From assembly GCA_965218795.1 (NCBI GenBank), contig OZ244653.1, forward strand, positions 2,144,001 through 2,208,000: 64,000 nucleotides of DNA, given 5' to 3'. This stretch comes from a bacterium (GTDB taxonomy: Bacteria; UBA8248; JACPRG01; G963555815). Below the pieces are notes generated by a model. It made no database searches. It was not told where the DNA came from and saw only the letters and a program-made list of their open reading frames with translations. A program made the position numbers and the translations under genes. This document shows positions 11,479 through 63,878 of this stretch, piece after piece (the first letter of the stretch is position 1; each line of letters begins with the position of its first letter).

Positions 11479-11513
11479 GTCAATTGACTTCCCCGGCGGC
11501 GAAATGTGAGAAT
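11479..11513 (+). promoter_or_regulatory. Candidate sigma70 promoter overlapped by palindrome GTCAATTGAC
   Basis: TTGACT at 11484, 18-nt spacer, GAGAAT. Lies upstream of the second hydantoinase pair. Confidence 0.35.
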
Positions 11514-11675
11514 GTCCTGTTTTCCCGAGCTGGAGGAGAGAGTGATCGTTCCTTTGCGGTTGGGAAAACCAATGGAGTCCGGTGTGACTCGCAACAACCC
11601 CAAAAAGCATGGAGCCTCCTTGCCTTCTATTTGAAAGCTCGGAGAGAAATCGGTTTGAAACCTCAGGGGAGCACT

Positions 11676-13733: not shown

Positions 13734-13813
13734 GGAATTGCATGGAGTCTTCATGGACCGGCTGCGAATACAGGAATTCGCTCGGCCGTAATCATCGATA
13801 GGAGCCCACGGGC

Positions 13814-22398: not shown

Positions 22399-23910
22399 CT
22401 ATGCCTCCTCCCGGATGAAATCCGCAACACGCTCGCCGATCATCAGGGAAATGTTATTGGTCGGGGAGTGCGGGATGACGGGGATGATGGAGGCGTCGGC
22501 GACCCGGAGATTGTCCATCCCGTGCACGCGCAGCCGATCATCCACAACGGCCATCGGGTCGGAAGCGGGCCCCATCATACAGGTCCCCGCCGCGTGGTGG
22601 AAGCTGTCGTACGTTGTCCGCGCGTATCGTTCCCAATCGTCCTCGGGACCGGGTTGGATCAACGGGCCGTAATGCTCCTTCATCGGCTCGGTTTTCACCA
22701 GCTCCTCGATGAACTTCATCATCGTAACCATGGCCTCCATGTCATCGGGGTCCTCCATCATCCGGGGATCAATCCCCGGCGGCTGACGAGGGTCGGTGCC
22801 GTTCAGGTAGACCCGTCCGGGAGACCGGTGCTCGATCAGCCGAACCGTGATGGAGTTGATCTGTCCCAGTCCCTCCATCTCCGTGGGCGGCCGGAGGATG
22901 ACCTGAACGTTGGAAAACTCCATCCCCGGGTCGCTCTTCAGGTTCAGCATGACGCCGGGAACGATCCACTCTTCCCGGTGCGGCTTGGCGCCCTCGTACG
23001 ACATATAGACCACCGTGTGGTCCTGGAAATTCTCCCCCACCCCTTCGAGGGGGCAAACCACCGGAATTCCGTGTCTTTCCAACTCGGCAACCGGTCCGAT
23101 TCCCGACAACAGCAAAATCTTCGGAGAATGATACGCGCCCGCGCTCAAGATCACCCGGTCCCCTGACACGGTCGTGACCCGCCCGTCCTGTTCGTACCGG
23201 ACCCCGGTCGCGCGGGTCTCCTCCACGTCGAGGGAGTGAACGAGGGCGTCCGCCTCGATGGTCAGGTTTTCCCGCTCCCGGGCGGGACCGAGATAGGCCA
23301 CGGCCGCCGATTGGCGCATCCCGTCCTTGACGGCGTAGGCGGTGAGGGATACCCCATACGGGTTGGGAAGGTTCTGGTCGGCACAGAGCGGCAACCCCAT
23401 CTCCCGGGCCGCTTCGGTCACGGCGCGCTCCAGTCCCTCCATCGGCTGATCGAAGCAGAGACGGCGCTTGACGTAGACCGGCCCGCTGTCGCCGTGATAC
23501 GGGCTTTCCGGGTAGTCCTGGTCCGATTCGATGCGCCGGAAGACAGGGAGAACTTCCTTCCACGTCCAGCCCGCGATTCCCCGTTTCGTCCAGACCTCGA
23601 AGTCGCGCGGGATCGGGCGCACGATGGACATCATGTTGACCGAGGAGCCTCCGCCCATAACGTTTCCGGCCAGGGCCTGGAACACGGTGCCGTCGGCGTT
23701 GCGGGGGGTCGGGAGGAGCTCGATGTAGGGGCTTTCCAGCAGGAGGCGCGTGACGAGCGTCGCGTCGGCAACGACGTCCGGGATGGGCTGGGGATCCGGC
23801 GCCCTTTCGAGGAGCAGGACCTTCCGCGCGGGGTCTTCCGAAAGCCGCGCGGCCGCCACGCAGCCCGCCGAGCCGCCTCCAATGATGATCACGTCGTACC
23901 GGCCCGTCAT
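22399..23910 (-). CDS. GMC oxidoreductase (third in transcription order)
   Basis: GGGSAG, GGGSSVN, GENFQDH, SFHHAAGTC, LRVADASI. Confidence 0.93.
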   Translation of the reverse strand: MTGRYDVIIIGGGSAGCVAAARLSEDPARKVLLLERAPDPQPIPDVVADATLVTRLLLESPYIELLPTPRNADGTVFQALAGNVMGGGSSVNMMSIVRPIPRDFEVWTKRGIAGWTWKEVLPVFRRIESDQDYPESPYHGDSGPVYVKRRLCFDQPMEGLERAVTEAAREMGLPLCADQNLPNPYGVSLTAYAVKDGMRQSAAVAYLGPARERENLTIEADALVHSLDVEETRATGVRYEQDGRVTTVSGDRVILSAGAYHSPKILLLSGIGPVAELERHGIPVVCPLEGVGENFQDHTVVYMSYEGAKPHREEWIVPGVMLNLKSDPGMEFSNVQVILRPPTEMEGLGQINSITVRLIEHRSPGRVYLNGTDPRQPPGIDPRMMEDPDDMEAMVTMMKFIEELVKTEPMKEHYGPLIQPGPEDDWERYARTTYDSFHHAAGTCMMGPASDPMAVVDDRLRVHGMDNLRVADASIIPVIPHSPTNNISLMIGERVADFIREEA

Positions 23911-23941
23911 GGGTGTTCCTTTTGGGTTCCGTTGGCGGGAA

Positions 23942-25453
23942 TCAGCCGTCTTCTCTGACGAAATCCGCCAGACGCTCGCCGATCATCAGGGAAATATTGT
24001 TGGTCGGGGAGTGCGGGATGACGGGAATGATGGAGGCATCGGCGACCCGGAGATTGTCCATCCCGTGCACGCGCAGCCGATCATCCACAACGGCCATCGG
24101 GTCGGAAGCCGGACCCATCATGCACGTTCCCGCAGCGTGATGAAAACTGTCGTAGGTCGTCCGTGCGAAGTGCGCCCAATCCTCTCCCGGACCGGGATCG
24201 ATCCGCGCGCCATAATACTCCTTCATCGGCCCGGTTCCGGCCAGATCGTCGGCAAACTGCATCATCGAGACCATAGCGCCGAGGTCGTCCGGATGTTCCA
24301 GCATCCGGGGATCAATCTCCGGATGCTCACGAGGGTCCGCGCTCTTCAGCAATACGCGGCCTCGATTCCTCTGCTCGATCAGCCGGACCGCGAGACCGTT
24401 GATCTGGCTCAGACCTTCCATCCGGGTGGGGGGCCGAATGTTGACCTGAACATTGGAATACCCCAGGTCCGGGTCGCTCTTCAGGTTCAGCATGACGCCG
24501 GCTACGATCCAGTCTTCCTGGTGCTCCTTGGCCCCCTCGTACGACATGTAGACCACGGCGTGGTCCTGTAGATTTTCGCCGACCCCCTCCTTGGCGTGAA
24601 CCAGGGGGATCCCGTTCCGCTCCAGTTCGACCGGCGGCCCGATGCCCGACAACATCAGAATCTTGGGCGACTGATACACACCCGCGCTCAGGACAATCTG
24701 CTCCCCCGACACCGTTTCGATGGCCCCGTCCTTCTCGTACCGGACCCCTGTGACGCGAGGTCCTTCGATATCCAGCGAGTGGGCCCAGGCCCCCGAAACA
24801 ACCGTCAGATTGGGCTTGGACCGTGCGGGCTCCAGATAACCGACCACGACGGATTGTCGCTTCCCGTCCTTGACGCATCGCGCCGGGGTCGAGACCCCGT
24901 AGGGGTTCGGGACGTTCTGGTCAGGACAAAACGGGAGGCCCAAGAGTTGGGCGGTCTCCGTCAGCGCCCGTTCCAGTCCCGCCATCGGCCGGTCGAACTT
25001 GACCCGGCGACTGACGGACACCGGCCCGGAATTCCCGTGGTATGGGTGGTCGGGGTAATCCTGGTCCGACTCGATACGCCGGAAGACGGGAAGGACGTCC
25101 TCCCAGGTCCACCCGGAAACGCCGCGGCCCGTCCAGACCTCGAAATCGTGGGGAATCGGCCGGAGCCACTCCATCATATTGACCGAGGAGCCGCCCCCCA
25201 TGACCTGGCCGGCCAGCGACTGAAATACGCTTCCGTCAAGGTTCCGCGCGGTCGGTAGAAGCTCGATATAGGGAGATTCAAGCAGGATTCGAGAAGCCTG
25301 CCCGGCGTCCGCGATGACTTCCGGCAGGGGTTGGGGGTCCGGCGCCCGTTCGAGAAGCAGGACCTTCCGCGCGGGGTCTTCCGATAGCCGCGCGGCCGCC
25401 ACGCAACCCGCCGATCCGCCCCCAACCACGATGACGTCGTAGCGTTCCGTCAT
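23942..25453 (-). CDS. GMC oxidoreductase (second in transcription order)
   Basis: GGGSAG, GGGSSVN, GENLQDH, SFHHAAGTC. Confidence 0.93.
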   Translation of the reverse strand: MTERYDVIVVGGGSAGCVAAARLSEDPARKVLLLERAPDPQPLPEVIADAGQASRILLESPYIELLPTARNLDGSVFQSLAGQVMGGGSSVNMMEWLRPIPHDFEVWTGRGVSGWTWEDVLPVFRRIESDQDYPDHPYHGNSGPVSVSRRVKFDRPMAGLERALTETAQLLGLPFCPDQNVPNPYGVSTPARCVKDGKRQSVVVGYLEPARSKPNLTVVSGAWAHSLDIEGPRVTGVRYEKDGAIETVSGEQIVLSAGVYQSPKILMLSGIGPPVELERNGIPLVHAKEGVGENLQDHAVVYMSYEGAKEHQEDWIVAGVMLNLKSDPDLGYSNVQVNIRPPTRMEGLSQINGLAVRLIEQRNRGRVLLKSADPREHPEIDPRMLEHPDDLGAMVSMMQFADDLAGTGPMKEYYGARIDPGPGEDWAHFARTTYDSFHHAAGTCMMGPASDPMAVVDDRLRVHGMDNLRVADASIIPVIPHSPTNNISLMIGERLADFVREDG

Positions 25454-25484
25454 TTCTGAACGTTCCGGTCAAGAGAAGAGCGGA

Positions 25485-26999
25485 TCAGCCGTCCTCTTTG
25501 ACGAAATCCGAGAGACGCTCGCCGATCATCAAAGAGGTGTTGTTGGTGTGGGCGTGCACGATGACGGGCATGATCGAGGCGTCCCCGATCCGCAGGTTGG
25601 CCATCCCGTGCACCCGGAGCCGTTCATCGACGACTGTCCCGGGACTGGAGGACGGCCCCATCATGCAGGTGCCCACGCCGTGGTGGAAGCTGTCATAGGT
25701 GGAGCGGGCGTACTTCGGCCAGTCCTCGTTGGGGTCGGGCTGGAAGAGGTTGCCGTAGAACTCGGCCATGGGTTTCGATTTCGCGATTTGGTCGATGATT
25801 TCCATGCCCTTCACGATGGCCCTGATGTCGCCCGGGTCCTCCAGCATCTGCGGGTCGATGCCCGGCAGGTCCTTCGGATCGGTCGATTGGAGAAACACCC
25901 GGCCGCGGGTCCTCTGCTCCAGGAGATGCACGGAGATGGTGTTGATCTGTCCCAACTCCTCCATGGCCGCAGGCTGGCGGATGATGGCCTGCAGGTCGGA
26001 CACTTCAAGTCCCGGGTCGCTCTTGAAATTGTGCATAATGCCCGGAGCAATCCAGTCCTCGACATGGTCCTTTGCTCCCTCGTACTGCAGGAAGACGACG
26101 GCGTGGTCCTGGTGATTCCCGCCGACGCCCTCCAGCCCCTGCACCACCTGGATGCCGTGCCGCTCCAGCTCGGCGGAGGGGCCTATCCCCGACAACATGA
26201 GGATCTGAGGCGACCCGTAAGCGCCCGCGCACAGGCAGATCTGGTCACCCGAGACGGTCCCTGTCTCCCCGTCCTTCTCATACCTGACGCCGGTGACCCG
26301 GTCTCCCTCGATATCCAATCCGTGGACCAGGGCTTCGGCGATGATGGTGAGATTGGGCCGCCCCCGCGCCGGTCCCACAAAGGCCACCGCGGAGGATTGC
26401 CGCCGCCCGTCCTTCACGTTATAGGCGGTTCGGGATACACCGAAAGGATTCGGGAGATTCTGATCGTCGACCGTCGGGTACCCCAGCTCCGCGGCCCCGT
26501 CGATGAATGCCCGCTCCAGACCATCGGGACGGATCTCGTCGAACACATATCGGCGTTGAACGTACAGGGGGCCGCTGTTTCCGTGACTCGGATGATCGGG
26601 ATAATCCTGGTCCGACTCGATCCGTTTGTAGACGGGCAAAACTTTTCCCCAGGCCCATTCAGGGTTTCCGAACTCCACCCAGCGGTCGAAATCGGAAGGC
26701 TGGGCCCGGATGACGGTCATGAAATTGACGGACGATCCCCCGCCGAGAATCCGCCCCGCCAGCGCGTAAAAGACTCTTCCATCGATGTTTCGGGGCGCGG
26801 GCAGCATCTCGATGTAAGGGGACTCGAGCATGATACGGCCCACGTTCTGATGGTCGGCGATGATCTCCGGCAGCGGCTGTGGGTCCGGGCTGCGATCCAG
26901 GAGGAGGACGTTCCGGTCCGGGTCTTCGGATAGGCGCGCGGCGGCCACACATCCGGCCGAGCCGCCGCCCACGATGACGACGTCGTAATGTTCGGCCAT
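25485..26999 (-). CDS. GMC oxidoreductase (first in transcription order)
   Basis: GGGSAG, GRILGGGSSVN, NHQDH, SFHHGVGTC, HAHTNN. Confidence 0.93.
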   Translation of the reverse strand: MAEHYDVVIVGGGSAGCVAAARLSEDPDRNVLLLDRSPDPQPLPEIIADHQNVGRIMLESPYIEMLPAPRNIDGRVFYALAGRILGGGSSVNFMTVIRAQPSDFDRWVEFGNPEWAWGKVLPVYKRIESDQDYPDHPSHGNSGPLYVQRRYVFDEIRPDGLERAFIDGAAELGYPTVDDQNLPNPFGVSRTAYNVKDGRRQSSAVAFVGPARGRPNLTIIAEALVHGLDIEGDRVTGVRYEKDGETGTVSGDQICLCAGAYGSPQILMLSGIGPSAELERHGIQVVQGLEGVGGNHQDHAVVFLQYEGAKDHVEDWIAPGIMHNFKSDPGLEVSDLQAIIRQPAAMEELGQINTISVHLLEQRTRGRVFLQSTDPKDLPGIDPQMLEDPGDIRAIVKGMEIIDQIAKSKPMAEFYGNLFQPDPNEDWPKYARSTYDSFHHGVGTCMMGPSSSPGTVVDERLRVHGMANLRIGDASIMPVIVHAHTNNTSLMIGERLSDFVKEDG

Positions 27000-29212: not shown

Positions 29213-30502
29213 CTACCGCGAAGCGATGGCGACGGCATCCATCTGGACGGAGCAGCCCCGAATCCAATGCGGGGGGCGAACGCCGCAGACCAAAGCCGCG
29301 GGCGGTTTCTTGGGAAACGCCGTCTGCCAAACGTCCAGGGAAGCGTCGAACCGGCTGAGATCGGTATAGAAATTCTGCGTCCAAACCACATCCTTCAGCG
29401 AGCTTCCCCCGGCCCGGCAGATCGCCTCCATGTTCTTAAGGATGTGCTCGGTTTCCCGCCTCCCGGCAGAGCCGAACCAGGGCATCTCGGAATGGACCGC
29501 CGCCCCGGGGGAGATCTCCATCTTTCCATCCGCGGCGAGAAGGCCGGACAGGAAAAGAAAGTCCCCCGCCCGCACGGCGTGGGGCTGATGACCTCCCGTG
29601 CCCGGAATCCCCTTGGCCTTGACGATTGTCTTCTTCGCGGCGCCGTCGTTCTTGACCGCAATCAGGTTGACCTCGATGCAGCAGTCCACGTCGGAGATCC
29701 GGCTGACGGGAATGATGGTCCGCGCGGGCGGCTCCTTCGGGAAGAGCTCCTCCCAGACCTCCTCGAATTCGTAATAGTCCTCCATATCCAGCAGCCAGAC
29801 GTCGGCCTTGACGACGTTTTCGAGCGAACTCCCCGCTTCTTCCAGGACCATCTGGAGGCGCTTCATGACGTAATCGGTCTGAAGCTTGATGGCCGAACCG
29901 TACCAGAAATCGGGATTCTTCCAGGCCTCGGCAGCCACACCGGTCTTGAAATCGCTTGCAATCTGGCCGGTCAGAAAGATGAAATCCCCCGCCGTCACCC
30001 CTTGCGGCCCTCCGGCGAAGGGTCCGCCCGGCGACTTCGGGATGCTTCCCATGTCGACGATCTCTTTGACCGTCTTGCCCTTCTCCGCAACGGCGATGCA
30101 CTCCAAACCGACCAGCGAGCCAGGCACCAGAAAATCCTCGACGGCCACATTCGTGCTGGCGGGCCGGATGGAGGGAGAAACGTAGTTTTTCCGGGTGTCC
30201 AGGTACGGGGAGGCGGCCTCCGGCCGCGTGACCAATTGATCGATCCGGACGCCGTAATCCAGCGATGACCCGGCCGCCTTCAGGATGGCCTGCGTGTTTC
30301 TGAGAATGTAATCCGACTGAATCTTGGCCAGGACGACGGGATTCGTGATTCCCCGGCTTTTTTTCTTGACCTCGGGCGCGAGTCCGGTCTTGTAATCTGT
30401 CGGGATCTGGCCGCCCACGAAGATGAAGTCGTCCGCCCGGACGGCGAGGGACCCCATGACGGGTGCCGGGACTTTGGGACATTGGATCACATCGCGACGC
30501 AT
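29213..30502 (-). CDS. Rid (RidA/YjgF/UK114) family protein with three tandem Rid domains
   Basis: Three ~140-aa repeats, each with (A/D)DF(I/L)F..G, (A/G)GSSL, PA and a terminal (I/V)A strand. Confidence 0.88.
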   Translation of the reverse strand: MRRDVIQCPKVPAPVMGSLAVRADDFIFVGGQIPTDYKTGLAPEVKKKSRGITNPVVLAKIQSDYILRNTQAILKAAGSSLDYGVRIDQLVTRPEAASPYLDTRKNYVSPSIRPASTNVAVEDFLVPGSLVGLECIAVAEKGKTVKEIVDMGSIPKSPGGPFAGGPQGVTAGDFIFLTGQIASDFKTGVAAEAWKNPDFWYGSAIKLQTDYVMKRLQMVLEEAGSSLENVVKADVWLLDMEDYYEFEEVWEELFPKEPPARTIIPVSRISDVDCCIEVNLIAVKNDGAAKKTIVKAKGIPGTGGHQPHAVRAGDFLFLSGLLAADGKMEISPGAAVHSEMPWFGSAGRRETEHILKNMEAICRAGGSSLKDVVWTQNFYTDLSRFDASLDVWQTAFPKKPPAALVCGVRPPHWIRGCSVQMDAVAIASR

Positions 30503-51401: not shown

Positions 51402-52575
51402 ATGATCGAGCGCGACATCACTCCCTGCCTGGTCAGGCTCTTCAAGCAATATCCCTATTGTGACCGTGACCGGGCCACGCCAATCCGGCAAGACCACGCT
51501 CTGCCGCGAGACCTTTCCTCATCTGAAATACGCCAATCTGGAAGCACCCGACCAACGGGAATTTGCCGAATCCGACCCTCGGGGCTTTCTCTCTCAGCTC
51601 GATGGTGGCGCCATCCTGGATGAGATCCAGCATGTCCCCGAACTCCTGTCGTATCTCCAGGTCCTCGCCGACGAGAAGGGACAGAACAGCCTCTTTGTCC
51701 TCACAGGTAGCGAGCACTTCAAGCTCTCCGAAGCCATCAGCCAGTCGCTGGCGGGACGGACGGCACTGCTCCGTCTGCTGCCGTTTTCGCTGGCGGAACG
51801 GCAAAGAACGGGCGCAAGCAACGCAGTAGACGATATTCTCTACTCGGGCTTCTATCCGCGGATTCACGATCAGGGGCTCGAGCCGCGGCAAGCACTCGGC
51901 GATTACTTCGAAACCTACGTCGAGCGCGATGTGCGTCGGCTGGGCGAAATTCGCAACCTATCAAGCTTTCAACGTTTCGTCCGCTTATGCGCCGGGCGTG
52001 TCGGGCAACTGGCCAATCTCTCCTCCCAGGGTGCGGACGCCGGCGTCTCCCACACCACAGCGCGACACTGGCTCACGCTGCTGGAAGCGAGCTACATCGT
52101 TTTCCAGCTACCGCCATTTCACGCCAATATTCGAAAGCGCTTGGTCAAATCGCCCAAGCTCTACTTCTACGACGTTGGGCTGGCCTGCTATCTCATTGGC
52201 ATCGAGCGGTCCGAGCAGATTGCCACCCATCCCCTGCGCGGGGCGCTGTTCGAGAATGCAGTTGTGGCGGAGGCGCTCAAATATCGTTTGAATCGGGGGC
52301 GCCCACTCAATCTGTCCTTTTTCCGCGACAGCCGGGGTCTGGAATGCGACCTATTGTTTGAAACCGGCCACGGCATGGGCGCCATTGAGATCAAATCCGG
52401 CGCAACAATTGCCTCGGATTATTTCGATTCGCTCAATCGCGTTGCCAGGTTGGTTCCGGAGATTTCTACGAAAGCCGTCATCTACGGCGGCATACATCGG
52501 CAATCCCGAAGTGTAGACGAGGTTGTACCGTTCGGTGATTTATACGATGTGCTCGAACGCTTCGAAGTCAACTAA
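51402..52575 (+). pseudogene. AAA_14/DUF4143 ATP-binding protein with a frameshift near codon 18
   Basis: MIERDI...FKQYP starts at 51402 in one frame; IVTVTGPRQSGKTT, LDEIQ, LTGS, TYVERD, KSPKLYFYD, FEN, ECD, IEIK lie in another. One extra base in tatccctattgtg. Confidence 0.8.
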
Positions 52576-52616
52576 GAGTTAGCAGCCTGTCCTATTTGCT
52601 GGGACCACCTCACACC

Positions 52617-52722
52617 GACCACTGGAACGAAAACGCCAATCCGTTTGTGTGGACGGCTACGGCCGATTCCATCCTCGCTAAGATCAAATGACTTTAGTGA
52701 ATATATCTCTGAGTCATAACAC
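52617..52722 (+). mobile_element. IS630-family transposase C-terminal remnant and right end
   Basis: DHWNENANPFVWTATADSILAKIK followed by ...TCTGAGTCATAACAC. Confidence 0.7.
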
Positions 52723-52875
52723 GAGAATCAAGGTGCTCGTTATTGTAGAACTTCAGGCCTGCCTTGTCGGCAGACAGGTACGCGTCCAGGTCCTTCCCCC
52801 GCAGCCCGCCCTATGCCGCCTGGATTCCTGCCTGCAGCCTGCCCTTGAAGGTTCCCCGCCGTAGGATCGCGGGGA

Positions 52876-52990
52876 CAAGCTGAGTCGATGCTCCGCAACC
52901 TTCTTCTTTGCCGTTGTCATGGCTCCTCCCTCTCTGTCATCCGGGGGATCTCGTTCCCCCTTTGAAAGATATCATCTGTTCGGGTACGTG
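52876..52990 (-). mobile_element. IS481-like left-end remnant (copy 2)
   Basis: Shares an ~80-nt leader with 40533-40605; encodes MTTAKKKVAEHRLSL and then breaks off. Confidence 0.55.
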
Positions 52991-53189
52991 TATCGATCTG
53001 TTTTCATCGACTGTGAAACCCTAATATCATATTGATATTATTGAATTATAGAGATTATTCTTGCCTTGCCCGGAACGGGCCTTGCGTAGTTCGTAATCAA
53101 AATGAAAGCGGATTCGTTAAAACGCCTGCGCATCTCGGCGAGTCCCTGTCGGGTAATCGTTCGGCCGGGCCGTGATGGGGGGTCTGACT

Positions 53190-53693
53190 TTAGCTGTTGA
53201 GGGTTCGTTTCCAATTTTTTCTGAGGGGGCGAAGCCAGATGTCCTTTTTCGGTTGGGCGCGTTTCGTGTGCCTGTCGTAGCGTCCGCGTCCCTGGGTGGT
53301 TCCGACATGGATCCAGCCCGATGCCCTGTAGACGGCGCCGGTGTATCGCGGTGTCTGGACGAAGGTCTCGATGAGCACGGGGGTTGTGTTGTAGCGCCCG
53401 GTCCAGTCCTCGGGCAGGCGACGGCGGACGATGGCGAGGATGTACGAACCGAGGTTGGGGATCTTGATCCAGGGTAGGATGAGGAATCTCGGGTTGTCGA
53501 CCACGAGGGGGAGGTTCTTCTCGCGCAGTTGCGGCGTCCAACCGATGAAGCGGTCTCGAGGGGCCAGCTTCCACGCGGCGGTGCTGAAGCCGAGCATGGC
53601 GAGCGGCCAACCGTCGCGGTCGTGGACGGCGTAGCGCATCTGGGCGCCGACGAGGGTCTTGTAGCCGAGATAGTGGTAGCGGGCGACGAACTC
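53190..53693 (-). pseudogene. DUF4338 (DruA-like) protein, 5'-truncated, IS-associated
   Basis: EFVARYHYLGY...GAQMRY...LGFSTAAWKLAPRDRFIGW...RFLILPW..PNL.S...ETFV...G.VYRASGW..VG.TQGRGR. Sequence upstream of 53693 is unrelated. Confidence 0.8.
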
Positions 53694-54242
53694 TGAGAAT
53701 TTGCTCGGCCACGGGCACATGCTTTTCAAATTTTCCCTTTTCCCCGATACCCAGCACCAGGAACATGTTGGGCGCATTCGTATCCAGGAGAAACACCGCA
53801 ATCTCGACCTTCTTCCCCGTTAGCGCCAGGCGCGGTTTTGTTCGTCTTGTTGTTTGACCGCCTCTAAGACCAGGACAAGACCCGCTCCGGCAGCGCTCGC
53901 ACCGCCGTACGTCCCGGAAACGAGGCGTTTGGTGATCGGGTTCCGCGGGCCAAGAGTACTGAAGGTGGACCGTCCGCCCCTTCGTGCCGCGGGATGGATT
54001 TCAGCATCCCGATGCGGGGGGTGGAAAGTTGTTGACGCCGGATTCAAATGGATGTTGAATGATTCCAGGGGTAAAATAAAGATCGGGAATCCAGCGTTAA
54101 GAATCGATCGGGGAAGCTCCGCATAGATTTCTTTACGTCTGTGCAATTCGCCAAATTCAGGATGGGTGTTGTCGATGAAGAGAAAGGCATCCTGACCATG
54201 AGGCGATTAACCGATGCGTTCATCGCAAGGAGGGTGGGGGCC

Positions 54243-55958
54243 ATGGATCCGTTTGAATTCGACCGATTCCAAACTGAGGTAGAGGACGAGGGCGAGAACA
54301 GGGGGCTGCGCCCCTGGATCAATCGGCGGCAGTTCATGAAGTGGGCGGGACTTCTCGGCGCCAACACCATCTTCCTGACAACCGCCGGGAGGGGATGGGG
54401 GGCGAATGCCCAGCCGGGAAAACCCGTGCCGCCCTTCGAAGCCTGGTATTACACCTATCCGGAGTGGATTGAGTTCTGGCGGTACACCCCTATTGATCTC
54501 AAGCCGCTTGGAATCCAAATCAAGCCGAACTCGGGTACGCTGATCACGATTCTCGGCCGGGTGCTCCGGCAGAGGAAGTACGGCGACATGGTGACCTTCT
54601 CCTGGGTGGCGAACCCGGAACGGGTCGACCCCAACTTCTGGCTGAAGCACCTTCTCCATTCCAAGGGGGGCCGGAACTACGTCCATTACTCCAACCCCGA
54701 ATTCGATCGGGTCGTGGAAGCGCAGGCATCGGAGATGGACCCCGAGAAGCGGCGGGAGCTCGTGTGGAAGGCCCAGGAGATTGCCGCCAAGGATCACGCC
54801 AAGATGTATCTGGCGCACCCCGACGAGGTCCACGCCTACAACGACAAGGATTGGGCGGACGCCTCTCCCGGCCTGGGCGCGGCGCTCAACTTCGGAAACA
54901 TCTGGCACTATTTGAATTTTCGCCCTCTCAAGGACCGGAAGGTTTTTCGCTGCGCGGCCATCGGCGACATCGACACCCTGAATATCTTCAACACCTCGAG
55001 CGGCACGAACATCCAGTTGCTCCGGTTCATCTACGACCCCTTCGTGCGGTACACGACGGACTTCAAAGTCATTCCGTGGGCAGCTGAGTCCTGGGATGTC
55101 GTCAATCCGACAACCGTCGACATTGTTCTGCGGTCGGGAATGAAGTTTCACGACGGCAAGCCGGTCACCATCGCCGACGTGAAGTTCACGATGGATTATC
55201 TGAAGAAGTGGAATTTCCCCTTCTTCAAGTTTGCCGTGAATTACGAGCGGACCGAAGTGATGGGCGACCGCCGCCTGCGATTCCATCTCAGCAAGCCGCA
55301 CGCCGGCTTCGTCACGGTGGATCTGTCCTTCCTGGTCATCCTGCCCAAGCACATCTGGCAGGACATTCCCAAGCGCGCCGGGTTGGCCGATCCGCGCAAG
55401 TGGGCCGTGTATCCCGAGACCGTCGGCACCGGTCCGTTCAAGCTCAAGCGCTGGCGGAAGGGGGAAGGCCTGGTGATGGAGGCCAACAAGGAGCATTTCC
55501 ATCCCCCCAAGGCGGACGGGTTCATCTACCGGCCCGTTTCCACGGTCGAGGCCCAGGTGGGGATGCTGGAAACGGGGGAGATCGACATGACGACCGGCGC
55601 CCTGGCGCTGACGCCCGAAGTGGCCAATCGCCTGTCCGAGCGTCCCAACATCTCCGTCGCCAAGTCGAAGTCCTACAAGCTTTGGTACCTGGGGCTGAAT
55701 CTGAAGCGACAGCCCTTCAAGGACGTGGAGTTCCGCCGCGCCCTCAACCACGCCATTGACCGAAGGAAGTTCGTCGACATCGCGTTGCGAGGAGGCGGCA
55801 CCCCGGCCAAGGCGACGCCCATTTCGCCGGTCCTGCAGCCTTGGCATAACCCGAACCTGCCGCTGCCGGAGTTCAATATCGACAAGGCCCGGGAGATCCT
55901 GAAGAATGCGGGCTATACCTGGGATCGCCGGGGACGTCTCGTGATGCCCGAGGCGTGA
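54243..55958 (+). CDS. Peptide/nickel ABC substrate-binding protein (SBP family 5), Tat signal, circularly permuted
   Basis: INRRQFMK twin-arginine leader. YSNPEFD..DPEKRREL..AQEI precedes IYD..PWAAESW..KFHDGKPVT..VGTGPFK..FRRAL..AID..KAREIL..AG. Confidence 0.9.
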   Translation: MDPFEFDRFQTEVEDEGENRGLRPWINRRQFMKWAGLLGANTIFLTTAGRGWGANAQPGKPVPPFEAWYYTYPEWIEFWRYTPIDLKPLGIQIKPNSGTLITILGRVLRQRKYGDMVTFSWVANPERVDPNFWLKHLLHSKGGRNYVHYSNPEFDRVVEAQASEMDPEKRRELVWKAQEIAAKDHAKMYLAHPDEVHAYNDKDWADASPGLGAALNFGNIWHYLNFRPLKDRKVFRCAAIGDIDTLNIFNTSSGTNIQLLRFIYDPFVRYTTDFKVIPWAAESWDVVNPTTVDIVLRSGMKFHDGKPVTIADVKFTMDYLKKWNFPFFKFAVNYERTEVMGDRRLRFHLSKPHAGFVTVDLSFLVILPKHIWQDIPKRAGLADPRKWAVYPETVGTGPFKLKRWRKGEGLVMEANKEHFHPPKADGFIYRPVSTVEAQVGMLETGEIDMTTGALALTPEVANRLSERPNISVAKSKSYKLWYLGLNLKRQPFKDVEFRRALNHAIDRRKFVDIALRGGGTPAKATPISPVLQPWHNPNLPLPEFNIDKAREILKNAGYTWDRRGRLVMPEA

Positions 55959-55994
55959 TGCCTCCGGCCGGATCCGTTCGAGCGACTGTCTGAA

Positions 55995-56024
55995 GCGGGA
56001 GAGGCCCCACGGGGGCCCTCCCGT
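55995..56024 (+). promoter_or_regulatory. Intercistronic stem-loop after the binding-protein gene
   Basis: gcgggagaggcccc-ac-gggggccctcccgt with no U-tract. Confidence 0.45.
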
Positions 56025-56090
56025 TGCTCTCTCTTCGCCTTCTGCTGAAAGTCCGGCGGGGGGGCGTCTCCTTCCCAAAGGCAAAACGGA

Positions 56091-57065
56091 ATGGGACCGC
56101 GCGGCTTTTTCATTCGACGGCTCGTCCAGACCCTTGTCCTTCTCTGGGTCGTGCTCACCTTGATGTTCTTTCTCTTCCGGATGATGCCCGGAGATCCAGT
56201 CTCCATGCTGGTCAGCCTGGATCTGGATGAGACGGCCCAAGAACGGATCCGGGCGGATTGGGGGCTCGACCAGCCGGTTTACGTTCAGTACGGGCGTTAC
56301 TTGCAAAACCTGCTCAAGGGCGACTGGGGGACCTCCTTCTATTACGCCAGACCCGTGTGGGAATCCGTCTCCGTCCAGCTCCGGAACACCTTGATCCTCA
56401 TGGTGATCAGTGTGTTGATGGCCTTGGCCTTGAGCATTCCCATCGGGGCCTTTCTGGGGTGGAAACGCGGTAAGCGAATCGAGCGGCTGGGGGTCCTCCT
56501 TCCCTTGGCCATTCGGTCGATTCCCATCTTCTGGGCCGGAATTCTCCTCCTCATGGTTTTCGCGTTCTGGCTCAGGGCCTTCCCCGTCGGGGGAATGCTC
56601 TCCCCAACGTTTTCTCAACCCCCGTTCCCGAGGTTCCTCTTGACGGCGGATTTCCTGCGCCATCTCTTTCTGCCGTTCGTTTGCGCCACCCTGTTCCTGA
56701 TGCCCGAACCTCTGATGATCATGCGGACAAGCACGCTGGAGGTGAAGGGCGAAGAGTTCCTGGAGCTTCTCAAGGCCAAGGGAATGTCCGAGGCAGGGGT
56801 GATCCGTCATGCAGCCCGGAATTCTCTCCTGCCCGTCATCTCCTGGACTACCCTGATGGCGAGTTTCGCATTCGGGGGACAGGTCCTGTTGGAGGTTGTG
56901 TTCTCCTGGCCGGGGATCGGGCGCGAAATGGTTCTGGCGGTCTCGCGCCAGGATTTTCCCGTGGCCCAGGCGACCTTCTTCCTCATGGCGTTCGTGGTCA
57001 TCGTGATGAACCTCATCCTGGACATGGTCTATGGATTCCTGGATCCCCGGATCGTCTATAAGTGA
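56091..57065 (+). CDS. Peptide ABC permease (DppB/OppB-like)
   Basis: MPGDP, GLDQP...QY, GDWGTS, KAKG, HAARN, EVVFSWPGIG, DPRI. Confidence 0.95.
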   Translation: MGPRGFFIRRLVQTLVLLWVVLTLMFFLFRMMPGDPVSMLVSLDLDETAQERIRADWGLDQPVYVQYGRYLQNLLKGDWGTSFYYARPVWESVSVQLRNTLILMVISVLMALALSIPIGAFLGWKRGKRIERLGVLLPLAIRSIPIFWAGILLLMVFAFWLRAFPVGGMLSPTFSQPPFPRFLLTADFLRHLFLPFVCATLFLMPEPLMIMRTSTLEVKGEEFLELLKAKGMSEAGVIRHAARNSLLPVISWTTLMASFAFGGQVLLEVVFSWPGIGREMVLAVSRQDFPVAQATFFLMAFVVIVMNLILDMVYGFLDPRIVYK

Positions 57066-57966
57066 GGCCCCGGCCGTCCAGGCGACCGCCGAGCCGTCGG
57101 CGTCCCGGAAAGGCCTCGGCGCGGCGGTCAAGCTGATCCGCCGCGAGCCCGCCGGTGTCCTGGCCTGTGTCCTCCTGCTCGTTTTTTTCCTGTTTGCCCT
57201 TGCACCCCAGGCTTTCGTCCGTTATGAGCCCATGTCCTATCAGTACCGCGCGGACCGCTCGCTGGACGCGCTGACGCCTCCCTCGTCCAAGCACTGGCTG
57301 GGGACCACTTTTTACGGTCGGGACGTATTCAGCCTGACCATCGCGGGATCCCGCGTGGCCATCATCGTCGGGATGATTTCCGCCTTGTTCATTATCATCA
57401 TCGGGACGAACATCGGGCTCCTGGCGGGCTATTTCGGCGGGCGGGTGGACGACGCCCTCATGCGCCTGACGGACGTGGCCTTCAGCATCCCTTTCATCCC
57501 CTTTGCGATCGTGCTCGCGGGGCTTTTCGGGCCCAGTCTGTTCAACATCATCTTTTCGATCTCCATTCTGATGTGGCGCACCTGCGCGCGGGTCATCCGT
57601 GCCCAGGTGCTGAGTCTGAAGGAACGGCCTTTCGTCCTGGCGGTCCGGGCGGCCGGAGGGGGCCATCTCCGCATCCTTTACGGTCATCTGCTTCCGAACG
57701 TTCTGCCTCTTGCACTGTTGTACGGGGCCTTCGGCGTGGCCTGGGCGGTGATCGCCGAGGCGGGCGTCAGCTTTCTGGGCTTCGGGGATCCTCTGGTGGT
57801 GAGCTGGGGACAGATGATTCACCTGGCCTTCGTGACGGCAACCATCCGAAAGGCCTGGTGGTGGGTCGTGCCGCCGGGTCTCTGCATTGTGCTCTTTGTC
57901 ATTTCCTGCTTTTTGATTGGACGGGTGATCGAGGAAATCGTCTTCCCACGCCTGCGGGAGAAGTAG
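57031..57966 (+). CDS. Peptide ABC permease (DppC/OppC-like); start uncertain
   Basis: PPS..HWLGT...GRD, AGYFGG.VD..LMR, ARVIRAQVL, HLLPN, EAG.SFLG, SWG, WWW..PPG. Confidence 0.93.
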   Translation: MDSWIPGSSISEAPAVQATAEPSASRKGLGAAVKLIRREPAGVLACVLLLVFFLFALAPQAFVRYEPMSYQYRADRSLDALTPPSSKHWLGTTFYGRDVFSLTIAGSRVAIIVGMISALFIIIIGTNIGLLAGYFGGRVDDALMRLTDVAFSIPFIPFAIVLAGLFGPSLFNIIFSISILMWRTCARVIRAQVLSLKERPFVLAVRAAGGGHLRILYGHLLPNVLPLALLYGAFGVAWAVIAEAGVSFLGFGDPLVVSWGQMIHLAFVTATIRKAWWWVVPPGLCIVLFVISCFLIGRVIEEIVFPRLREK

Positions 57967-57968
57967 CC

Positions 57969-58985
57969 ATCGCGCTTCTGGAAGTCAACGATCTCAAGGT
58001 GTACTACCGGCTCGGCGAGCGGACGGTCCGGGCCGTGGACGGCGTCTCCTTCGAGGTCAAGGAGGGGGAGTATTTTGGGATTGTCGGAGAGTCGGGCTGC
58101 GGCAAGTCGACCTTGGCCAAGGCCCTTCTGCGGATTCTTGCGCCGACGGCCGAGATTCCCACCGGAGAGGTCCGCTTGGAGGGACGGGACCTCCTCGGCC
58201 TTTCGGAGGCCAAGATGAGGCAGGTCCGATGGAAGAAAATTTCCATGATCACCCAGAGCGCCCTGAACGCCCTGGATCCGGTCGCGACGGTCGGACACCA
58301 GGTCGTCGAGGCCATCCGGCTCCACGAGAACGTGAGGAAAGAGGAGGCCTTGCACCAGACACATGCACTGTTCGAACTCGTGGGGCTGGACCCGGGCCGG
58401 CACCGCAACTATCCCCATCAGTTCAGCGGAGGGATGCGGCAGCGGGTCATCATCGCAATGGCCCTGGTGCTCAATCCCAGCATCGTGATCGCGGATGAGC
58501 CCACCACGGCTCTGGATCTTGTGGTCCAGGATCAGATTTTCGCCAAGATTCGTGAGCTCCACAGCGCCGGGAAGCGCTCCATGATCCTGATTACCCACGA
58601 CATCTCGCTGATCGCGGAGAATTGCGACCGAGTCGCAGTGATGTACGGCGGGCGGATCATGGAGATGGCCGACGCCGTATCCGTCTTCTCCCGCGCCTAT
58701 CACCCGTACACCCTGGGATTGCAGAACGCCGTACCCCTCGTGCGCGGACCGAAGAAGGCCCTCATCTCCATTCCGGGCAGACCCCCGCCCCTCGACGCGC
58801 CCATGCCCGGGTGCCCCTTTGTCGATCGATGCCCTTTTGCCACGGACCGATGCCGGGAAGAGGAACCCCGCCCCCGTTCCGTTGCGCCCGGTCATTGGGT
58901 GGCCTGCCATCACACCGATAAGGCCGAGGAGATTCGGGACAGGGCGGTTCAAATCGAGACATGGCGCCGACTGGAGGCGCGTTGA
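57969..58985 (+). CDS. Peptide ABC ATP-binding protein (DppD/OppD-like); apparent ATC start
   Basis: [51 protein letters not shown]. Confidence 0.93.
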
Positions 58986-59987
58986 ATGACCCAGGCGCAA
59001 GAGAAGGTCGGCGTCCGAATCCAAGACCTGCGAAAGCACTTCCCGCTGCATCATGGATTCCTGGCCTCGGTTTTCTCCCAGGGAGAGGGTCCGACGCTTC
59101 GGGCGGTGGACGGGGTCAATCTCGCCATCGCCCCCGGCGAGATCGTGGGCGTGGCCGGAGAAAGCGGCTCGGGAAAAACCACCCTCGGGATGACCATCGT
59201 CCGCTTGTATGAGCCGACGGAGGGGGCCATCCTGTTCGGGGAGCAGGACATCTCTCACCTTCAGGGCGAGGCGCTGAAGGCGTTCCGGAGGGAGGCCCAG
59301 ATTGTATTCCAGGATCCATACGGCTCCCTGGATCCCCGATTGAACATCTTCGACACGGTGGCCGAATCCCTTCGAATCCACGGGGTTCGGAACCGAGGGG
59401 AGCTGACCGACCGGGTTTCGCTGTCCTTGCAGCGCGTCCGTCTGGATCCGTCGAGAGAGTTCGTCCGGCGTTTTCCCCACGAGCTCTCTGGCGGCCAACG
59501 GCAACGGGTGGCCATCGCCCGAGCCATTGTGCTCGAGCCCCGGTTCCTCGTCGCCGATGAGCCCGTTTCCATGCTCGATGTCTCGGTGAGAGCCGGGATC
59601 ATCGAGATTTTGAACGGGCTTTCGGAGTCCATGGGTCTCACGATGCTCTACATCTCCCATGACCTTTCGACCATCCGATACATTTGCCACCGCACGGCCA
59701 TCATGTATCTCGGCCGCATCGTGGAAATCGGTTCCACCGAGGAGGTCATCCAGGATCCGCAACACCCCTACACAAAGGCCCTGGTGGCCGCGGTTCCCGT
59801 GGCCGATCCGCTCTTTCGAAGATCCCGGGTCGAGCTGACGGGCGCGATCCCCAGTCCCATCGATGTCCCCAAGGGGTGTGCATTCCGGGAGCGGTGCCCC
59901 AGCGCCATGAGTCACTGCGGCGCTGCCTCGCCGATGCTGAGACCCGTCCGGAATGGACGCGCTGTGGCCTGTTTTCTCTACGAGTGA
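58986..59987 (+). CDS. Peptide ABC ATP-binding protein (DppF/OppF-like)
   Basis: GESGSGKT, FQDPY, FPHELSGGQRQR, ADEPVSMLD, HPYT, GCAF..RCP. Confidence 0.95.
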   Translation: MTQAQEKVGVRIQDLRKHFPLHHGFLASVFSQGEGPTLRAVDGVNLAIAPGEIVGVAGESGSGKTTLGMTIVRLYEPTEGAILFGEQDISHLQGEALKAFRREAQIVFQDPYGSLDPRLNIFDTVAESLRIHGVRNRGELTDRVSLSLQRVRLDPSREFVRRFPHELSGGQRQRVAIARAIVLEPRFLVADEPVSMLDVSVRAGIIEILNGLSESMGLTMLYISHDLSTIRYICHRTAIMYLGRIVEIGSTEEVIQDPQHPYTKALVAAVPVADPLFRRSRVELTGAIPSPIDVPKGCAFRERCPSAMSHCGAASPMLRPVRNGRAVACFLYE

Positions 59988-60030: not shown

Positions 60031-61428
60031 ATGAGTTCCCCCAAACGGAAGATGGTGGAATGGATGAACGAGCGCGAGTCGCACTGGACCGACATCAGCC
60101 GAGACCTTTGGGAGCATCCGGAGCTCGCGATGGAGGAGCATTACTCTGCAGCCCTTTTGGCGGATGAACTGGAGAAGGAGGGTTTCGAGGTGGAGCGGGG
60201 CGTGGCCGAGATGCCGACGGCCTTTGTGGCCTCCTGGGGGAGCGGCTCTCCCACAATCGGCATTTTGTGCGAGTACGACGCCCTGCCGGGTCTGTCCAAC
60301 GAGGCGGTGCCGGAGCGAAGTTCGAGCGTGGAGGGGGGTCCAGGTCACGGTTGCGGCCACAACCTGATCGGGACCGGGGGCATGGCCGCGGCCGTGGCGG
60401 TTCGATCCGTTCTGGAGAAGGAGAAGTTGCCCGGAACGGTCAAGCTGTTCGGCACGCCGGCGGAGGAGACCCTAGCCGGGAAGGTCTTCATGACGCGGGA
60501 CAGGGTGTTCGAAGGGCTGGACGCCGTCCTCACCTGGCACCCGATGTGGGAGAACGAGGCCACCTTTGAGAGCTGTCTGGCCCTCTACTCGATCAAGTTC
60601 GCCTTTCAGGGACGGTCGTGTCACATTCCTTCCACGCCCGAGGCCGGAAGAAACGCCCTCGACGCCGTCGAGCTGATGAATGTGGCGGCCAACATGCGTC
60701 GCAAGCACCTTCCCCCTGGGGCGACCCTCGAATACGTCGCCCTGGAAGGCGGGAGCTTTCCGAACGTGGTTCCGGACTTGGCGGAGGCTTGGTATTACGT
60801 CCGGGCCCCCGAGGTCGGGATACTGCGCGCGGGCGTGGAGGAGCTGGAGAACGCCGCCCGGGGGGCCGCCGTGGCCACGGGAACGGAGGTGGCTTGGCGG
60901 GTGGTCACGGGTTGCTATCCTTATCTCCCCAACCGCGCCTTTGCCGAGCTTCTGTATGAGAATCTGCAAGAAGTCGGCCCCCCCCAGTATTCGGAAAAGG
61001 ATCACGCTTTTGCCAGAAATCTCCAAAAGACGTTCGCCGCTCCTCCCGGAGAGGCCCTGGACGAGGGTCTCCGACTGACGGGAGACTTCGTGGGGCCCTA
61101 CAGCCAGGATGACGGAGACCTCTCCTGGCTCTGCCCGTTGGGCCTGGTTCATACCTCCGCCTGGGTCCGCGGTGTCCCCGCGCACACCTGGCAGGTGGTG
61201 GCCACCTCCGGGATGTCCATCGGGTTCAAGGCCATGATCAGCGCCGCCAAGACGATGGCCGCGGGGGCCCTGGACCTCTTCACCCAGCCGACGCGGCTCG
61301 AAGCACTCCAGAAGGAGTTTCGCGAACGAACGGATGGATTCGAGTACGAAGGCCTGGTGTCCAAGGAGGTGAAGCCGCTTGAGGCGGATTCGCCGCCCTA
61401 TGATTTTTCGGGTTCCCGGGCCGGGTGA
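60031..61428 (+). CDS. M20 amidohydrolase (AbgB/p-aminobenzoyl-glutamate hydrolase B-like)
   Basis: EYDALPGLS, GHGCGHNL, GTPAEE, WHP, GRNALDA, NVVP, HTWQ. Confidence 0.9.
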   Translation: MSSPKRKMVEWMNERESHWTDISRDLWEHPELAMEEHYSAALLADELEKEGFEVERGVAEMPTAFVASWGSGSPTIGILCEYDALPGLSNEAVPERSSSVEGGPGHGCGHNLIGTGGMAAAVAVRSVLEKEKLPGTVKLFGTPAEETLAGKVFMTRDRVFEGLDAVLTWHPMWENEATFESCLALYSIKFAFQGRSCHIPSTPEAGRNALDAVELMNVAANMRRKHLPPGATLEYVALEGGSFPNVVPDLAEAWYYVRAPEVGILRAGVEELENAARGAAVATGTEVAWRVVTGCYPYLPNRAFAELLYENLQEVGPPQYSEKDHAFARNLQKTFAAPPGEALDEGLRLTGDFVGPYSQDDGDLSWLCPLGLVHTSAWVRGVPAHTWQVVATSGMSIGFKAMISAAKTMAAGALDLFTQPTRLEALQKEFRERTDGFEYEGLVSKEVKPLEADSPPYDFSGSRAG

Positions 61429-61485: not shown

Positions 61486-62868
61486 ATGGACAGATCGAAA
61501 TCGAACGCCGTGGAGTGGATCGAGGAGCGACGCGAAAGATTCACCGACATCGCCCAGCGGATCTGGGAGCACCCGGAACTCGCGATGGAGGAGCATTTTT
61601 CCGCAGCCCTTTTGGCGGATGAGTTGGAGCAGGAAGGTTTCACGATGGAGCGGGGCGTGGCCGAGATGCCGACGGCTTTTGTCGCCTCCTGGGGGAGCGG
61701 CTCTCCCACGATCGGCATCATGTGCGAGTACGACGCCCTGCCGGGTCTGTCCAACGAAGCGGTGCCGGAGCGAAAGCCGATCGTGGAGGGGGGGCCGGGT
61801 CACGGTTGCGGTCACAACCTGATCGGAACCGGGAGCATGGCCGCCGCCATGGCGGTTCGCTCCGTCCTGGAGAAGGAGAAGCTGCCCGGAACCGTCAAGC
61901 TGTTCGGCACGCCGGCAGAGGAAACCCTGGCCGGGAAGGTCTTCATGACGCGGGACAAGGTGTTCGAAGGGCTGGACGCCGCCCTTACCTGGCACCCCTA
62001 TGGCAAGAACCGCGCGACCTATGAGAGCAGCCTGGCCCTGCTGTCAGTTCGGTTCGCCTTCGAAGGAAAGACGTGTCACATTCCCTCCCGGCCCGAGGCC
62101 GGGCGCAACGCCCTGGACGCCGCCGACCTGATGAACGTGGCGGCCAACATGCGTCGCAAGCATTTCCCTCCCGGAACCACCATGGAATACGTCCTTCTGG
62201 AGGGCGGAAACTACCCGAACGTGATTCCGGACCTGGCGGAGGTGTGGTATTTCATCCGGTCGCCCGAGGTCAACCGGCTGGAGGAGGTCTTCCGGGACGT
62301 ACAGAACGCCGCCCGGGGAGCCGCTCTGGCGACCCGGACCGAAGTAAAAATGAAGATGGTCAGCGGCTGTTACGGATATCTTCCCAACAAGTCGCTGACT
62401 CGAGTCGCCTTCGAGAATTTCCAGCTCGTGGGAGCCCCCAGGTTCACCCAGGAGGAAAAGGCCCTGGCGCACGCCCTTCAGCGGACCCTGGACATCGAGA
62501 TGGAGGAGCCGCTGGATGAGGGGATCGAATTTCACGGAGATGAGGTGGGGCTCTTCTCCCAGGACGACGGGGATCTTTCCTGGCTCTGCCCGCTGACTCG
62601 AATCCGCACGTCCGCCTGGGTGGATGGCGTCCCGTCTCATACGTGGCAGACGACCGTCAGCTGCGGAACCTCGATCGGATACAAGGGGATGATGGTGGCG
62701 GCGGAGGCGATGACCCTGACGGCCCTGGACCTGTACACCCGGCCGGAAGCCCTGAAGGCGGCGAAGGAGGAATTCGATGATCGGACCCGCGGATTCGAGT
62801 ACCGCTGCCTGATCCCTCCGGACGTGAAGCCCATTGGAGACCCGCCGTCCATGCCGCTGTCTTCCTAA
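61486..62868 (+). CDS. M20 amidohydrolase (AbgB-like), tandem paralog
   Basis: Same motifs as the upstream paralog; 5' third near-identical at DNA level. Confidence 0.9.
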   Translation: MDRSKSNAVEWIEERRERFTDIAQRIWEHPELAMEEHFSAALLADELEQEGFTMERGVAEMPTAFVASWGSGSPTIGIMCEYDALPGLSNEAVPERKPIVEGGPGHGCGHNLIGTGSMAAAMAVRSVLEKEKLPGTVKLFGTPAEETLAGKVFMTRDKVFEGLDAALTWHPYGKNRATYESSLALLSVRFAFEGKTCHIPSRPEAGRNALDAADLMNVAANMRRKHFPPGTTMEYVLLEGGNYPNVIPDLAEVWYFIRSPEVNRLEEVFRDVQNAARGAALATRTEVKMKMVSGCYGYLPNKSLTRVAFENFQLVGAPRFTQEEKALAHALQRTLDIEMEEPLDEGIEFHGDEVGLFSQDDGDLSWLCPLTRIRTSAWVDGVPSHTWQTTVSCGTSIGYKGMMVAAEAMTLTALDLYTRPEALKAAKEEFDDRTRGFEYRCLIPPDVKPIGDPPSMPLSS

Positions 62869-63180: not shown

Positions 63181-63392
63181 AAGCACGCGCTCCACGCAGG
63201 CGGACGGCAAGACCTCTCCCACCACGTTGAACACGGCGTCGTCATCAAGGGCGTCGCGCGGATCCGCTGGAGCTTTTCCAACAATCGCTGGGGCACCCGT
63301 CCCTATTCCAGATTCCTGCCCCCGACGAAGACATTCGGGAGCAGGCCGGCAGGAATGACAAGAGTTGGTGAGGCTCTCAATCTTTCGGAACC

Positions 63393-63612
63393 GCGGCTAC
63401 GAGGATGCCGACGACTGCGACGCCTTGCGTTCGGACCCAATGTTCAAGATGGCAGTGGGGCAAGCGCCAGAAAGCGGCCGCAACCTGTGTTCGCAGCCGA
63501 CCATGAGTCGACTGGAGAACACGCCATCACGCATCGAAACGGCGCGGATGACAGCGGCGCCGGTCGATACCTTCTGCCGGAGCTTCCGCGCGCCCCCCGC
63601 CACCGTCACCCT
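63393..63612 (+). mobile_element. IS1380-family transposase internal fragment
   Basis: GYEDADDCDALRSDPMFKMAVG..PES...LCSQPTMSRLEN...VTL. Confidence 0.85.
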
Positions 63613-63649
63613 CGCCGGTGGTCCCGTTTATGTTGTTCGGCTTGGATAT

Positions 63650-63878
63650 AGGGAAGCTGAGGGGTGAGCTCCTGAACGTGGAGGTGTTTGAGACGCTGAA
63701 GGAAGCCCAGGTGCTGGTGCGGGAGTACAACCAGCGACGGCCTCACAGCGCCTTGGCCTACCAGCCGCCGGCGCCACAGGCCAGATTCCCAAGATCCCAA
63801 GCCCTGGCGCCGGTTCCCCGGAGTGGACTTCAAAGGGTCCCGTGTCTAACGTAGCAGGTCGTCTCGTTGGGGGGTCAG
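63650..63878 (+). mobile_element. IS3-family transposase C-terminal fragment with probable right end
   Basis: GKLRGELLNVEVFETLKEAQVL...YNQRRPHSALAYQPPAP, ending in ...TTGGGGGTCA. Confidence 0.8.

Follow-up and report, generated by a model that had tools for sequence, protein, structure and literature searches.

A widespread, circularly permuted subfamily of family-5 solute-binding proteins, exemplified by a member encoded in an intact DppBCDF-type operon

Family-5 proteins rank with the most thoroughly studied binding proteins, and their ligands are very diverse, with NikA and CntA taking metal chelates. Canonical oligopeptide-binding proteins have their termini close together in domain I, and their lobe 2 is one continuous segment (PMC10924461, in the part available). 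A permuted ABC binding protein has been described outside this family, namely Tp0684 of Treponema pallidum, which according to the accessible part of its report still binds glucose and changes shape, and which founded 'cluster Bc' (PMC4990184). Here we describe a permuted family-5 protein, the order and completeness of its blocks, and the relatives that share its arrangement.

The window, a 64-kb stretch of DNA, contains a gene for a family-5 (cluster C) solute-binding protein of 571 aa (ORF at 54243-55958, + strand). An AAGGAGG that reads like a ribosome-binding site is found at 54227-54233 (+ strand), 9 nt before the ATG at 54243. The database copy of this protein (P0002) starts 27 codons farther upstream, whereas the leaders of two relatives (P0003 and P0004) have the shorter length matching the ATG at 54243. 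P0004, which is 95% identical, loses similarity after residues ~395-405 and is 533 aa long, its divergent end being due to a frameshift or to an assembly error in that record. Residues 1-56 (54243-54410, + strand) form a probable Tat signal peptide composed of a long acidic n-region, the motif NRRQFMK (RR at 54324-54329), a hydrophobic stretch and an A-N-A site (residues 54-56), after which the leader would be cleaved judging from the motif. The Pfam TAT_signal model (PF10518) matches residues 26-40 below its cut-off (18.6 vs 22.7 bits, E 0.0017), the NRRQFMK-type twin-arginine motif is common to the closest relatives, and pLDDT in the AlphaFold2 model is low across the leader except for a helix at 28-40. 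Tat export is plausible as far as the sequence can tell. The RRQF leader and all the other motifs quoted in the initial annotation were found in the 571-aa translation, in the order claimed there. No promoter-like site was found upstream of the gene and no terminator-like site within 53800-56200; a hairpin 3' of the gene is no more stable than its shuffled versions (z -0.8).

The normally C-terminal third of the family-5 chain, here called Block B, now comes first (residues 57-228; 54411-54926, + strand), as seen from a search with the N-terminal block, the family profile and the structure 3o6p_A, while the normally N-terminal two-thirds, Block A, comes last (residues 232-571; 54936-55958, + strand), as seen from PF00496 and from B. 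subtilis AppA (1xoc). This swapped order, the main claim of the initial annotation, is borne out by PF00496, by the family profile on 1xoc and by alignment of the block-restored protein to a canonical relative (P0225). In the Pfam scan, PF00496 matches residues 275-562 with its positions 1-282 of 368 (214.7 bits, cut-off 32.4), and ~85 profile positions are still to come where the protein stops. Split matches in swapped order had been expected from this model, but the single-sequence scan gives one stretch, and the second block comes into view only with PDB sequences or a profile of the family. With a profile built from 112 relatives, AppA residues 23-345 are matched by profile positions 223-546 (E 2.5e-64) and AppA residues 361-495 by profile positions 51-188 (E 1.7e-13), two stretches in swapped order, and the same pattern is found for 5u4o and 8efz. 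Residues 57-232 alone match the C-terminal regions of family-5 structures, the best being 2d5w at 426-542 (E 2.5e-9). Against canonical P0225, the native order gives two swapped pieces (169 and 74 bits), whereas the protein with its blocks restored to canonical order gives a single alignment (2-513 to 35-538, 30% identity, 227 bits); the restored protein also aligns in one piece with canonical P0236 and P0264. Nothing has been lost or duplicated, AppA being covered at 22-358 and then at ~361-495. A collinear full-length match, the contrary outcome that had been envisaged, was found to none of the solved structures listed by the profile search, Foldseek and VIA-align. These results confirm that the protein is a clean circular permutant of a family-5 (cluster C) protein. 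All 10 matching NCBIfam models stay far below their cut-offs (DppA, 72 vs 1005 bits; NikA, 101 vs 393 bits); the permutation itself reduces the scores. No cluster B family was matched in the Pfam scan.

An AlphaFold2 model (112 sequences; pLDDT 91.8, pTM 0.88) predicts the three-domain, two-lobed family-5 fold for the mature chain of 515 aa, with pLDDT of 94-97 across the junction. The structural aligners gave one block per chain, so that the two blocks were matched separately. By VIA-align, model residues 233-571 superimpose on AppA 22-358 (Z 23.9, rmsd 3.5, 329 aligned, ~27% identity in the structural alignment), and residues 55-194 on 387-526 of 3o6p_A, the structure of a C-terminal fragment (Z 9.5, rmsd 2.4, 135 aligned). 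Full-length family-5 chains all cover only about 225-571 of the model in VIA-align, and Foldseek matches reach a TM of at most 0.50 by query length. Every solved chain listed by the profile, Foldseek and VIA-align searches has the canonical order; none of the PDB chains listed by Foldseek and VIA-align aligns over both blocks and hence no solved permutant was seen, nor is there one among the matches listed for the family profile (60 of 115 PDB sequences). Only family-5 clusters were returned from the ESM Atlas, several of them named for twin-arginine signals. Block A would comprise domains I and II, the first hinge strand and the first half of lobe 2, and Block B the second half of lobe 2, the second hinge strand and the C-terminal part of lobe 1. 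The new cut would thereby lie inside lobe 2, lobe 1 would now be continuous, and two hinge crossings would remain, near model strands 188-200 and 470-485.

The junction of the old C- and N-termini lies where it had been claimed (~54930), around RPLKDR at residues ~227-232 (54921-54938, + strand). The spacing of the block profiles at the junction equals 7 in 191 of the 251 permuted proteins retrieved (5-8 from the 5th to the 95th percentile), and each of the 112 rows of the alignment runs across the junction with 26-34 residues over 30. At the cut site, the structural alignment takes Block A as far as AppA 358, and in the family profile Block B starts at ~361. Directly upstream of the operon there are an AAA_14/DUF4143 gene and a short ORF with a DruA domain (PF14236) (51460-53801, from Pfam), and downstream of it fragments at 63355-63667 that we take to resemble a broken IS1380-type transposase. 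Mobile-element remnants on both sides of the operon would be in keeping with an assembly mis-join, or with a recent rearrangement leaving a dead gene. But the block order is kept in 119 of the 120 best matches (one of the 120 being the window's own protein, and the odd one out a fragment) and occurs in finished replicons such as pHV3 of H. volcanii and plasmid 2 of Halalkalicoccus; the junction length is conserved; and no repeat was found at the junction, nor is there a composition step there, GC and GC3 being similar in the two blocks. Because every one of the 112 aligned relatives, from independent genomes, has this junction, a mis-join, which the initial annotation had named as a refuting outcome if reads showed it, is ruled out, and the probability that the arrangement is an artefact or a recent accident is negligible.

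The supposition that similar permutants may exist in databases proved right, as there are many of them in both bacteria and archaea. The 150 best representatives at 50% identity comprise 138 permuted proteins, 9 Block-A fragments and 3 canonical proteins, and the corresponding numbers for all 264 retrieved proteins are 251, 10 and 3. A GTDB scan gave, among the matches listed, 34 permuted genes in 32 of the 79 loci kept, along with 51 canonical genes, counts from which no frequency can be read because the scan was ranked by likeness to the 54243-55958 protein. Among the same listed matches, the bacterial carriers belong to Pseudomonadota, Bacillota, Chloroflexota, Actinomycetota, Atribacterota and Deferribacterota and the archaeal ones to Thermoproteota and haloarchaea, i.e., at least six bacterial and at least two archaeal phyla. 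Of the 37 matches in plasmid records, 27 span 80% or more of the query. Two haloarchaeal members, HVO_RS00095 of Haloferax volcanii and HACJB3_RS16870 of Halalkalicoccus, were checked and are permuted. The protein thus belongs to a large and widespread subfamily of permuted proteins and is not peculiar to its genome; all the relatives were ranked by likeness to it, a sampling by which independent permutations elsewhere would be missed. Permuted proteins are easily overlooked because Pfam labels them SBP_bac_5. Two cases from the scan deserve mention on their own. In Natrinema hispanicum (L060:4834-9437 and L061), one permuted gene stands in tandem with a second, divergent one, and no dppB-like gene was detected in the fetched flanks. 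An Atribacteria contig (L010:2-1492 and 5654-7309) has a canonical and a permuted gene adjoining each other, each followed by permease genes of its own.

Trees were computed with both blocks aligned in a fixed order (331 of 339 two-block proteins passed the coverage filter) and rooted at the midpoint, without a true outgroup. In the FastTree result, 279 permuted and 52 canonical rows are separated by one change with a support of 73, and in a subset of 64 rows, obtained by thinning on identity and leaving out six canonical rows with long branches, 45 permuted rows are separated from the other 19 with an SH-aLRT of 97. The permuted group has a support of 95 in the tree of Block A only, while the tree of Block B only needs 3 changes, none of which is forced by strong branches. 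One origin of the permutation fits these trees; it stays short of proof because there is no true outgroup and because sampling was by likeness to the 54243-55958 protein. The canonical protein P0264 branches beside the permuted group on a long branch, and its segment across the cut site resembles the C-terminus of the permutant joined to its N-terminus; P0264 may be a sister of the ancestor or a reversion. P0225, P0236 and L055:7845-9818, the last from a Desulfurococcales archaeon, carry a Thr-rich linker and a hydrophobic tail at the C-terminus.

As for the route, the four best-scoring canonical proteins are identical for Block A and Block B (P0225, P0236, P0264 and L055, all uncharacterised and the nearest unpermuted sequences for either block), which favours rearrangement of one gene. 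Duplication followed by truncation, and fission followed by fusion, are both recognised routes to permutation (PMC3320104, in the part available). A chimera arising by fission and re-fusion, with halves taken either from split genes or from two distinct family-5 genes, would be consistent with its standing as a recognised route in that source and with the Block B tree being less clean than the Block A tree. We consider such a chimera improbable, given the nearest canonical relatives common to the two blocks (rank correlation 0.50 over 54 proteins), the position of the cut inside a lobe, and the number of B-only proteins, which was zero among 86 short matches (84 A-only, 1 permuted fragment and 1 canonical fragment; many were probably cut at contig ends, so they are uninformative on A-only genes). 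Block B folded alone also models poorly (pLDDT 66, pTM 0.47), which is weak evidence as only 29 sequences went into it; family-5 chains top the matches of that model at Z 7.9 with an rmsd of ~10, and we do not take this as proof of the fold. In addition, 3 of 8 long proteins contain canonical blocks repeated in tandem as A-B-A-B, from which the duplication route could start. Duplication followed by truncation would be our choice of route, an inference still, since neither a partial duplicate nor a B-only protein appeared: all 8 long proteins, of 1116-3185 aa, have the canonical order and none is a duplication intermediate of the permuted subfamily (the long and short searches together left out lengths of ~1000-1116 and 288-314 aa). 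Among the very long proteins, P0265, P0268 and P0269 have two family-5 domains of canonical order in tandem, to which kinase and/or AAA domains are fused.

Intactness of the operon and probable function of the protein, both stated in the initial annotation, are upheld together with the permutation itself. All genes of the operon are on the + strand, and the permuted gene, which comes first, is followed by a DppB/OppB-type permease (56091-57065; PF00528 and PF19300, best NCBIfam model Opp2B, below cut-off), a DppC/OppC-type permease whose start is not fixed (57031-57966; PF00528, best NCBIfam model Opp4C, below cut-off), a DppD/OppD-type ATPase with an approximate start (57972-58985; PF00005 and PF08352), a DppF/OppF-type ATPase (58986-59987; PF00005 and PF08352) and two M20 amidohydrolases. 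The first M20 gene (60031-61428; PF01546 and PF07687, with TIGR01891 above cut-off) was scanned for domains from an upstream start at 59953, and the second (61486-62868) was identified from Pfam and NCBIfam scans. The two M20 proteins are 67% identical, and their nearest solved relatives are the Xaa-Arg dipeptidase 7yh4 and HmrA (3ram). The permuted protein most likely works in the usual family-5 way. A dppB-like gene is present in 26 of the 32 permuted loci among the GTDB matches listed.

The likeliest solute would be a small peptide-like or N-acyl/amide compound. A metal chelate or a sugar, such as those bound by NikA/CntA and by Thermotoga and Vibrio proteins, seems an unlikely ligand: the best NCBIfam match is a nickel-binding model, which scores far below its cut-off (132 vs 600 bits), the H. 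volcanii member is near a gene annotated as D-xylose dehydrogenase and family-5 ligands vary greatly, but the operon ends in two M20 amidohydrolases, and the recurring neighbours of permuted genes are M28 and M20 peptidases, hydantoinase/oxoprolinases, Asp/Glu racemases and enolase-superfamily enzymes. M20/M28 genes were found at 13 of 32 permuted vs 3 of 47 other loci among the matches listed, a comparison that is tilted by queries which came from permuted loci and favour those loci. The neighbours vary by subgroup, so the ligands probably vary too. One subgroup, including Neorhizobium and Brevibacillus, repeatedly lies beside genes for ~580-aa M28 peptidases (L003, L006, L007, L008, L016, L017, L018, L021, L025 and L028, with four M28 copies in L006), and hydantoinase/oxoprolinase and racemase genes are often near, making it a good lead for ligand discovery. 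At L004, L005, L014 and L022, dppB and dppC are separated by an MR/MLE enolase-superfamily gene, and a DAO-family oxidase gene comes after.

Leaders of the 251 permuted proteins, sorted by crude patterns, were of Tat type in 97, Tat with lipobox in 33, lipobox only in 40, other in 73 and truncated in 8. Many members thus carry lipoprotein-like or other leaders, which is why the permuted fold would not need Tat and why Tat export appears to be incidental to it. The permutation might have been selected for a changed function, through a tether or signal peptide on the other lobe, Tat export, permease docking or ligand range. One cut site is kept throughout bacteria and archaea, a twin-arginine pattern is present in 130 of the 251 permuted proteins, and among the GTDB matches listed it is carried by 11 of 34 permuted proteins, compared with 6 of 47 canonical proteins from the loci that are complete; a tethering advantage has also been proposed for Tp0684, where it is untested (PMC4990184, accessible part). 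Against these, inheritance alone accounts for the constant cut site, the partner permeases and ATPases look ordinary, and 113 of the 251 permuted members are without a twin-arginine pattern by the same crude criteria, so no single export route is required. We therefore hold selection for a changed function to be unlikely.

Our best explanation, in which we have high confidence, is that the protein serves a DppBCDF-type ABC importer as its functional extracytoplasmic binding protein and is a member of a subfamily of family-5 (cluster C) proteins that was circularly permuted long ago. In an ancestor, the original C- and N-termini, which are neighbours in lobe 1, would have been linked by a few residues, and new termini would have opened in a surface turn after the GYTWD motif of lobe 2 (AppA ~358-361). 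With neither loss nor doubling of any part, the fold of three domains would be retained together with the cleft and the two hinge strands; lobe 1 would have turned into a continuous segment, and lobe 2 would bear both termini together with the signal peptide or lipid anchor. The 54243-55958 protein would probably be exported folded, via Tat, close on a small peptide-like or N-acyl-amino-acid/amide solute and pass it to DppBCDF, and the imported solute may then be cleaved in the cytoplasm by the two co-transcribed M20 amidohydrolases. A bolder version, which we regard as doubtful, would set the subfamily apart as a 'cluster Cc', in which a single ancient permutation was kept for changed tethering or permease docking and which serves N-acylated or amide solutes with M20/M28 processing; the functional advantage is its weak step. 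If it were true, the protein would be turned inside out, with its signal peptide, lipid anchor and both termini on the opposite lobe.

Several other features of the window are worth recording. Two hydantoinase/oxoprolinase A and B gene pairs (5630-9261 and 11445-15694, + strand) are near molybdopterin oxidoreductase genes. Three GMC oxidoreductase genes, for proteins of ~503 aa, are in tandem (22399-26999, - strand), and a 429-aa protein with three RidA/L-PSP (PF01042) repeats (29213-30502, - strand) is encoded next to an S15 peptidase and a UbiD-family decarboxylase.

In the literature searched, which took in a minority of subscription papers, no paper was found that describes a family-5 permutant, and the locus tags of the permuted H. 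volcanii member are absent from the literature found. Term look-up in the available parts of PMC8694067, PMC2238938, PMC13552848 and PMC9763678 returned nothing relevant, and a listing in the supplement of PMC13552848, a structure-wide permutation survey, is possible. The permuted family-5 subfamily is apparently undescribed, and that it is both real and new to the literature we rate as reasonably probable. Specialists in binding proteins would be surprised by it. In ordinary alignments a third of the chain goes missing, and with it part of the binding cleft, which affects ligand prediction. A natural permutant indicates that the fold tolerates opening of lobe 2 at a defined site and offers a proven cut site for biosensor design, and the many natural sequences, including HVO_RS00095 of the model archaeon H. 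volcanii, could be used for testing how terminus position bears on export, tethering and permease docking. By itself, the permutation points to no new pathway.

Compared with known systems, the permuted protein is homologous over both blocks to B. subtilis AppA (1xoc), DppA (1dpp), OppA (1b05), NikA (1zlq) and YliB/GsiB (1uqw). It shares DppBCDF-type partner genes and a similar predicted fold with the AppA-type cluster C systems, but AppA-type proteins have both termini in domain I, whereas here the order is swapped and the termini are predicted in lobe 2. MeAmi_SBP (8upi; bioRxiv 10.1101/2024.02.22.581678, available part) is a family-5 protein whose operon also encodes an amide hydrolase; its ligands are amino-acid amides, and it is a model for finding the ligand class of the permuted protein; it has the canonical order and an FmdA/AmdA amidase, while the permuted operon has M20 enzymes instead and its relatives M20/M28, and the string 'permut' does not occur in the main text of that report. 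T. pallidum Tp0684 (MglB-2, 'Type Ic / Cluster Bc'; PMC4990184, accessible part) is also a naturally permuted ABC binding protein with a subfamily spread over distant taxa. It is a cluster B sugar binder of a different fold class, and so an analogue only, with a solved structure and a known ligand, and its permutation adds a fourth hinge crossover, whereas the family-5 permutant appears to keep two. Overall, the phenomenon has a precedent in permuted sugar-binding proteins such as Tp0684, and the function of the permuted family-5 protein is probably conventional.
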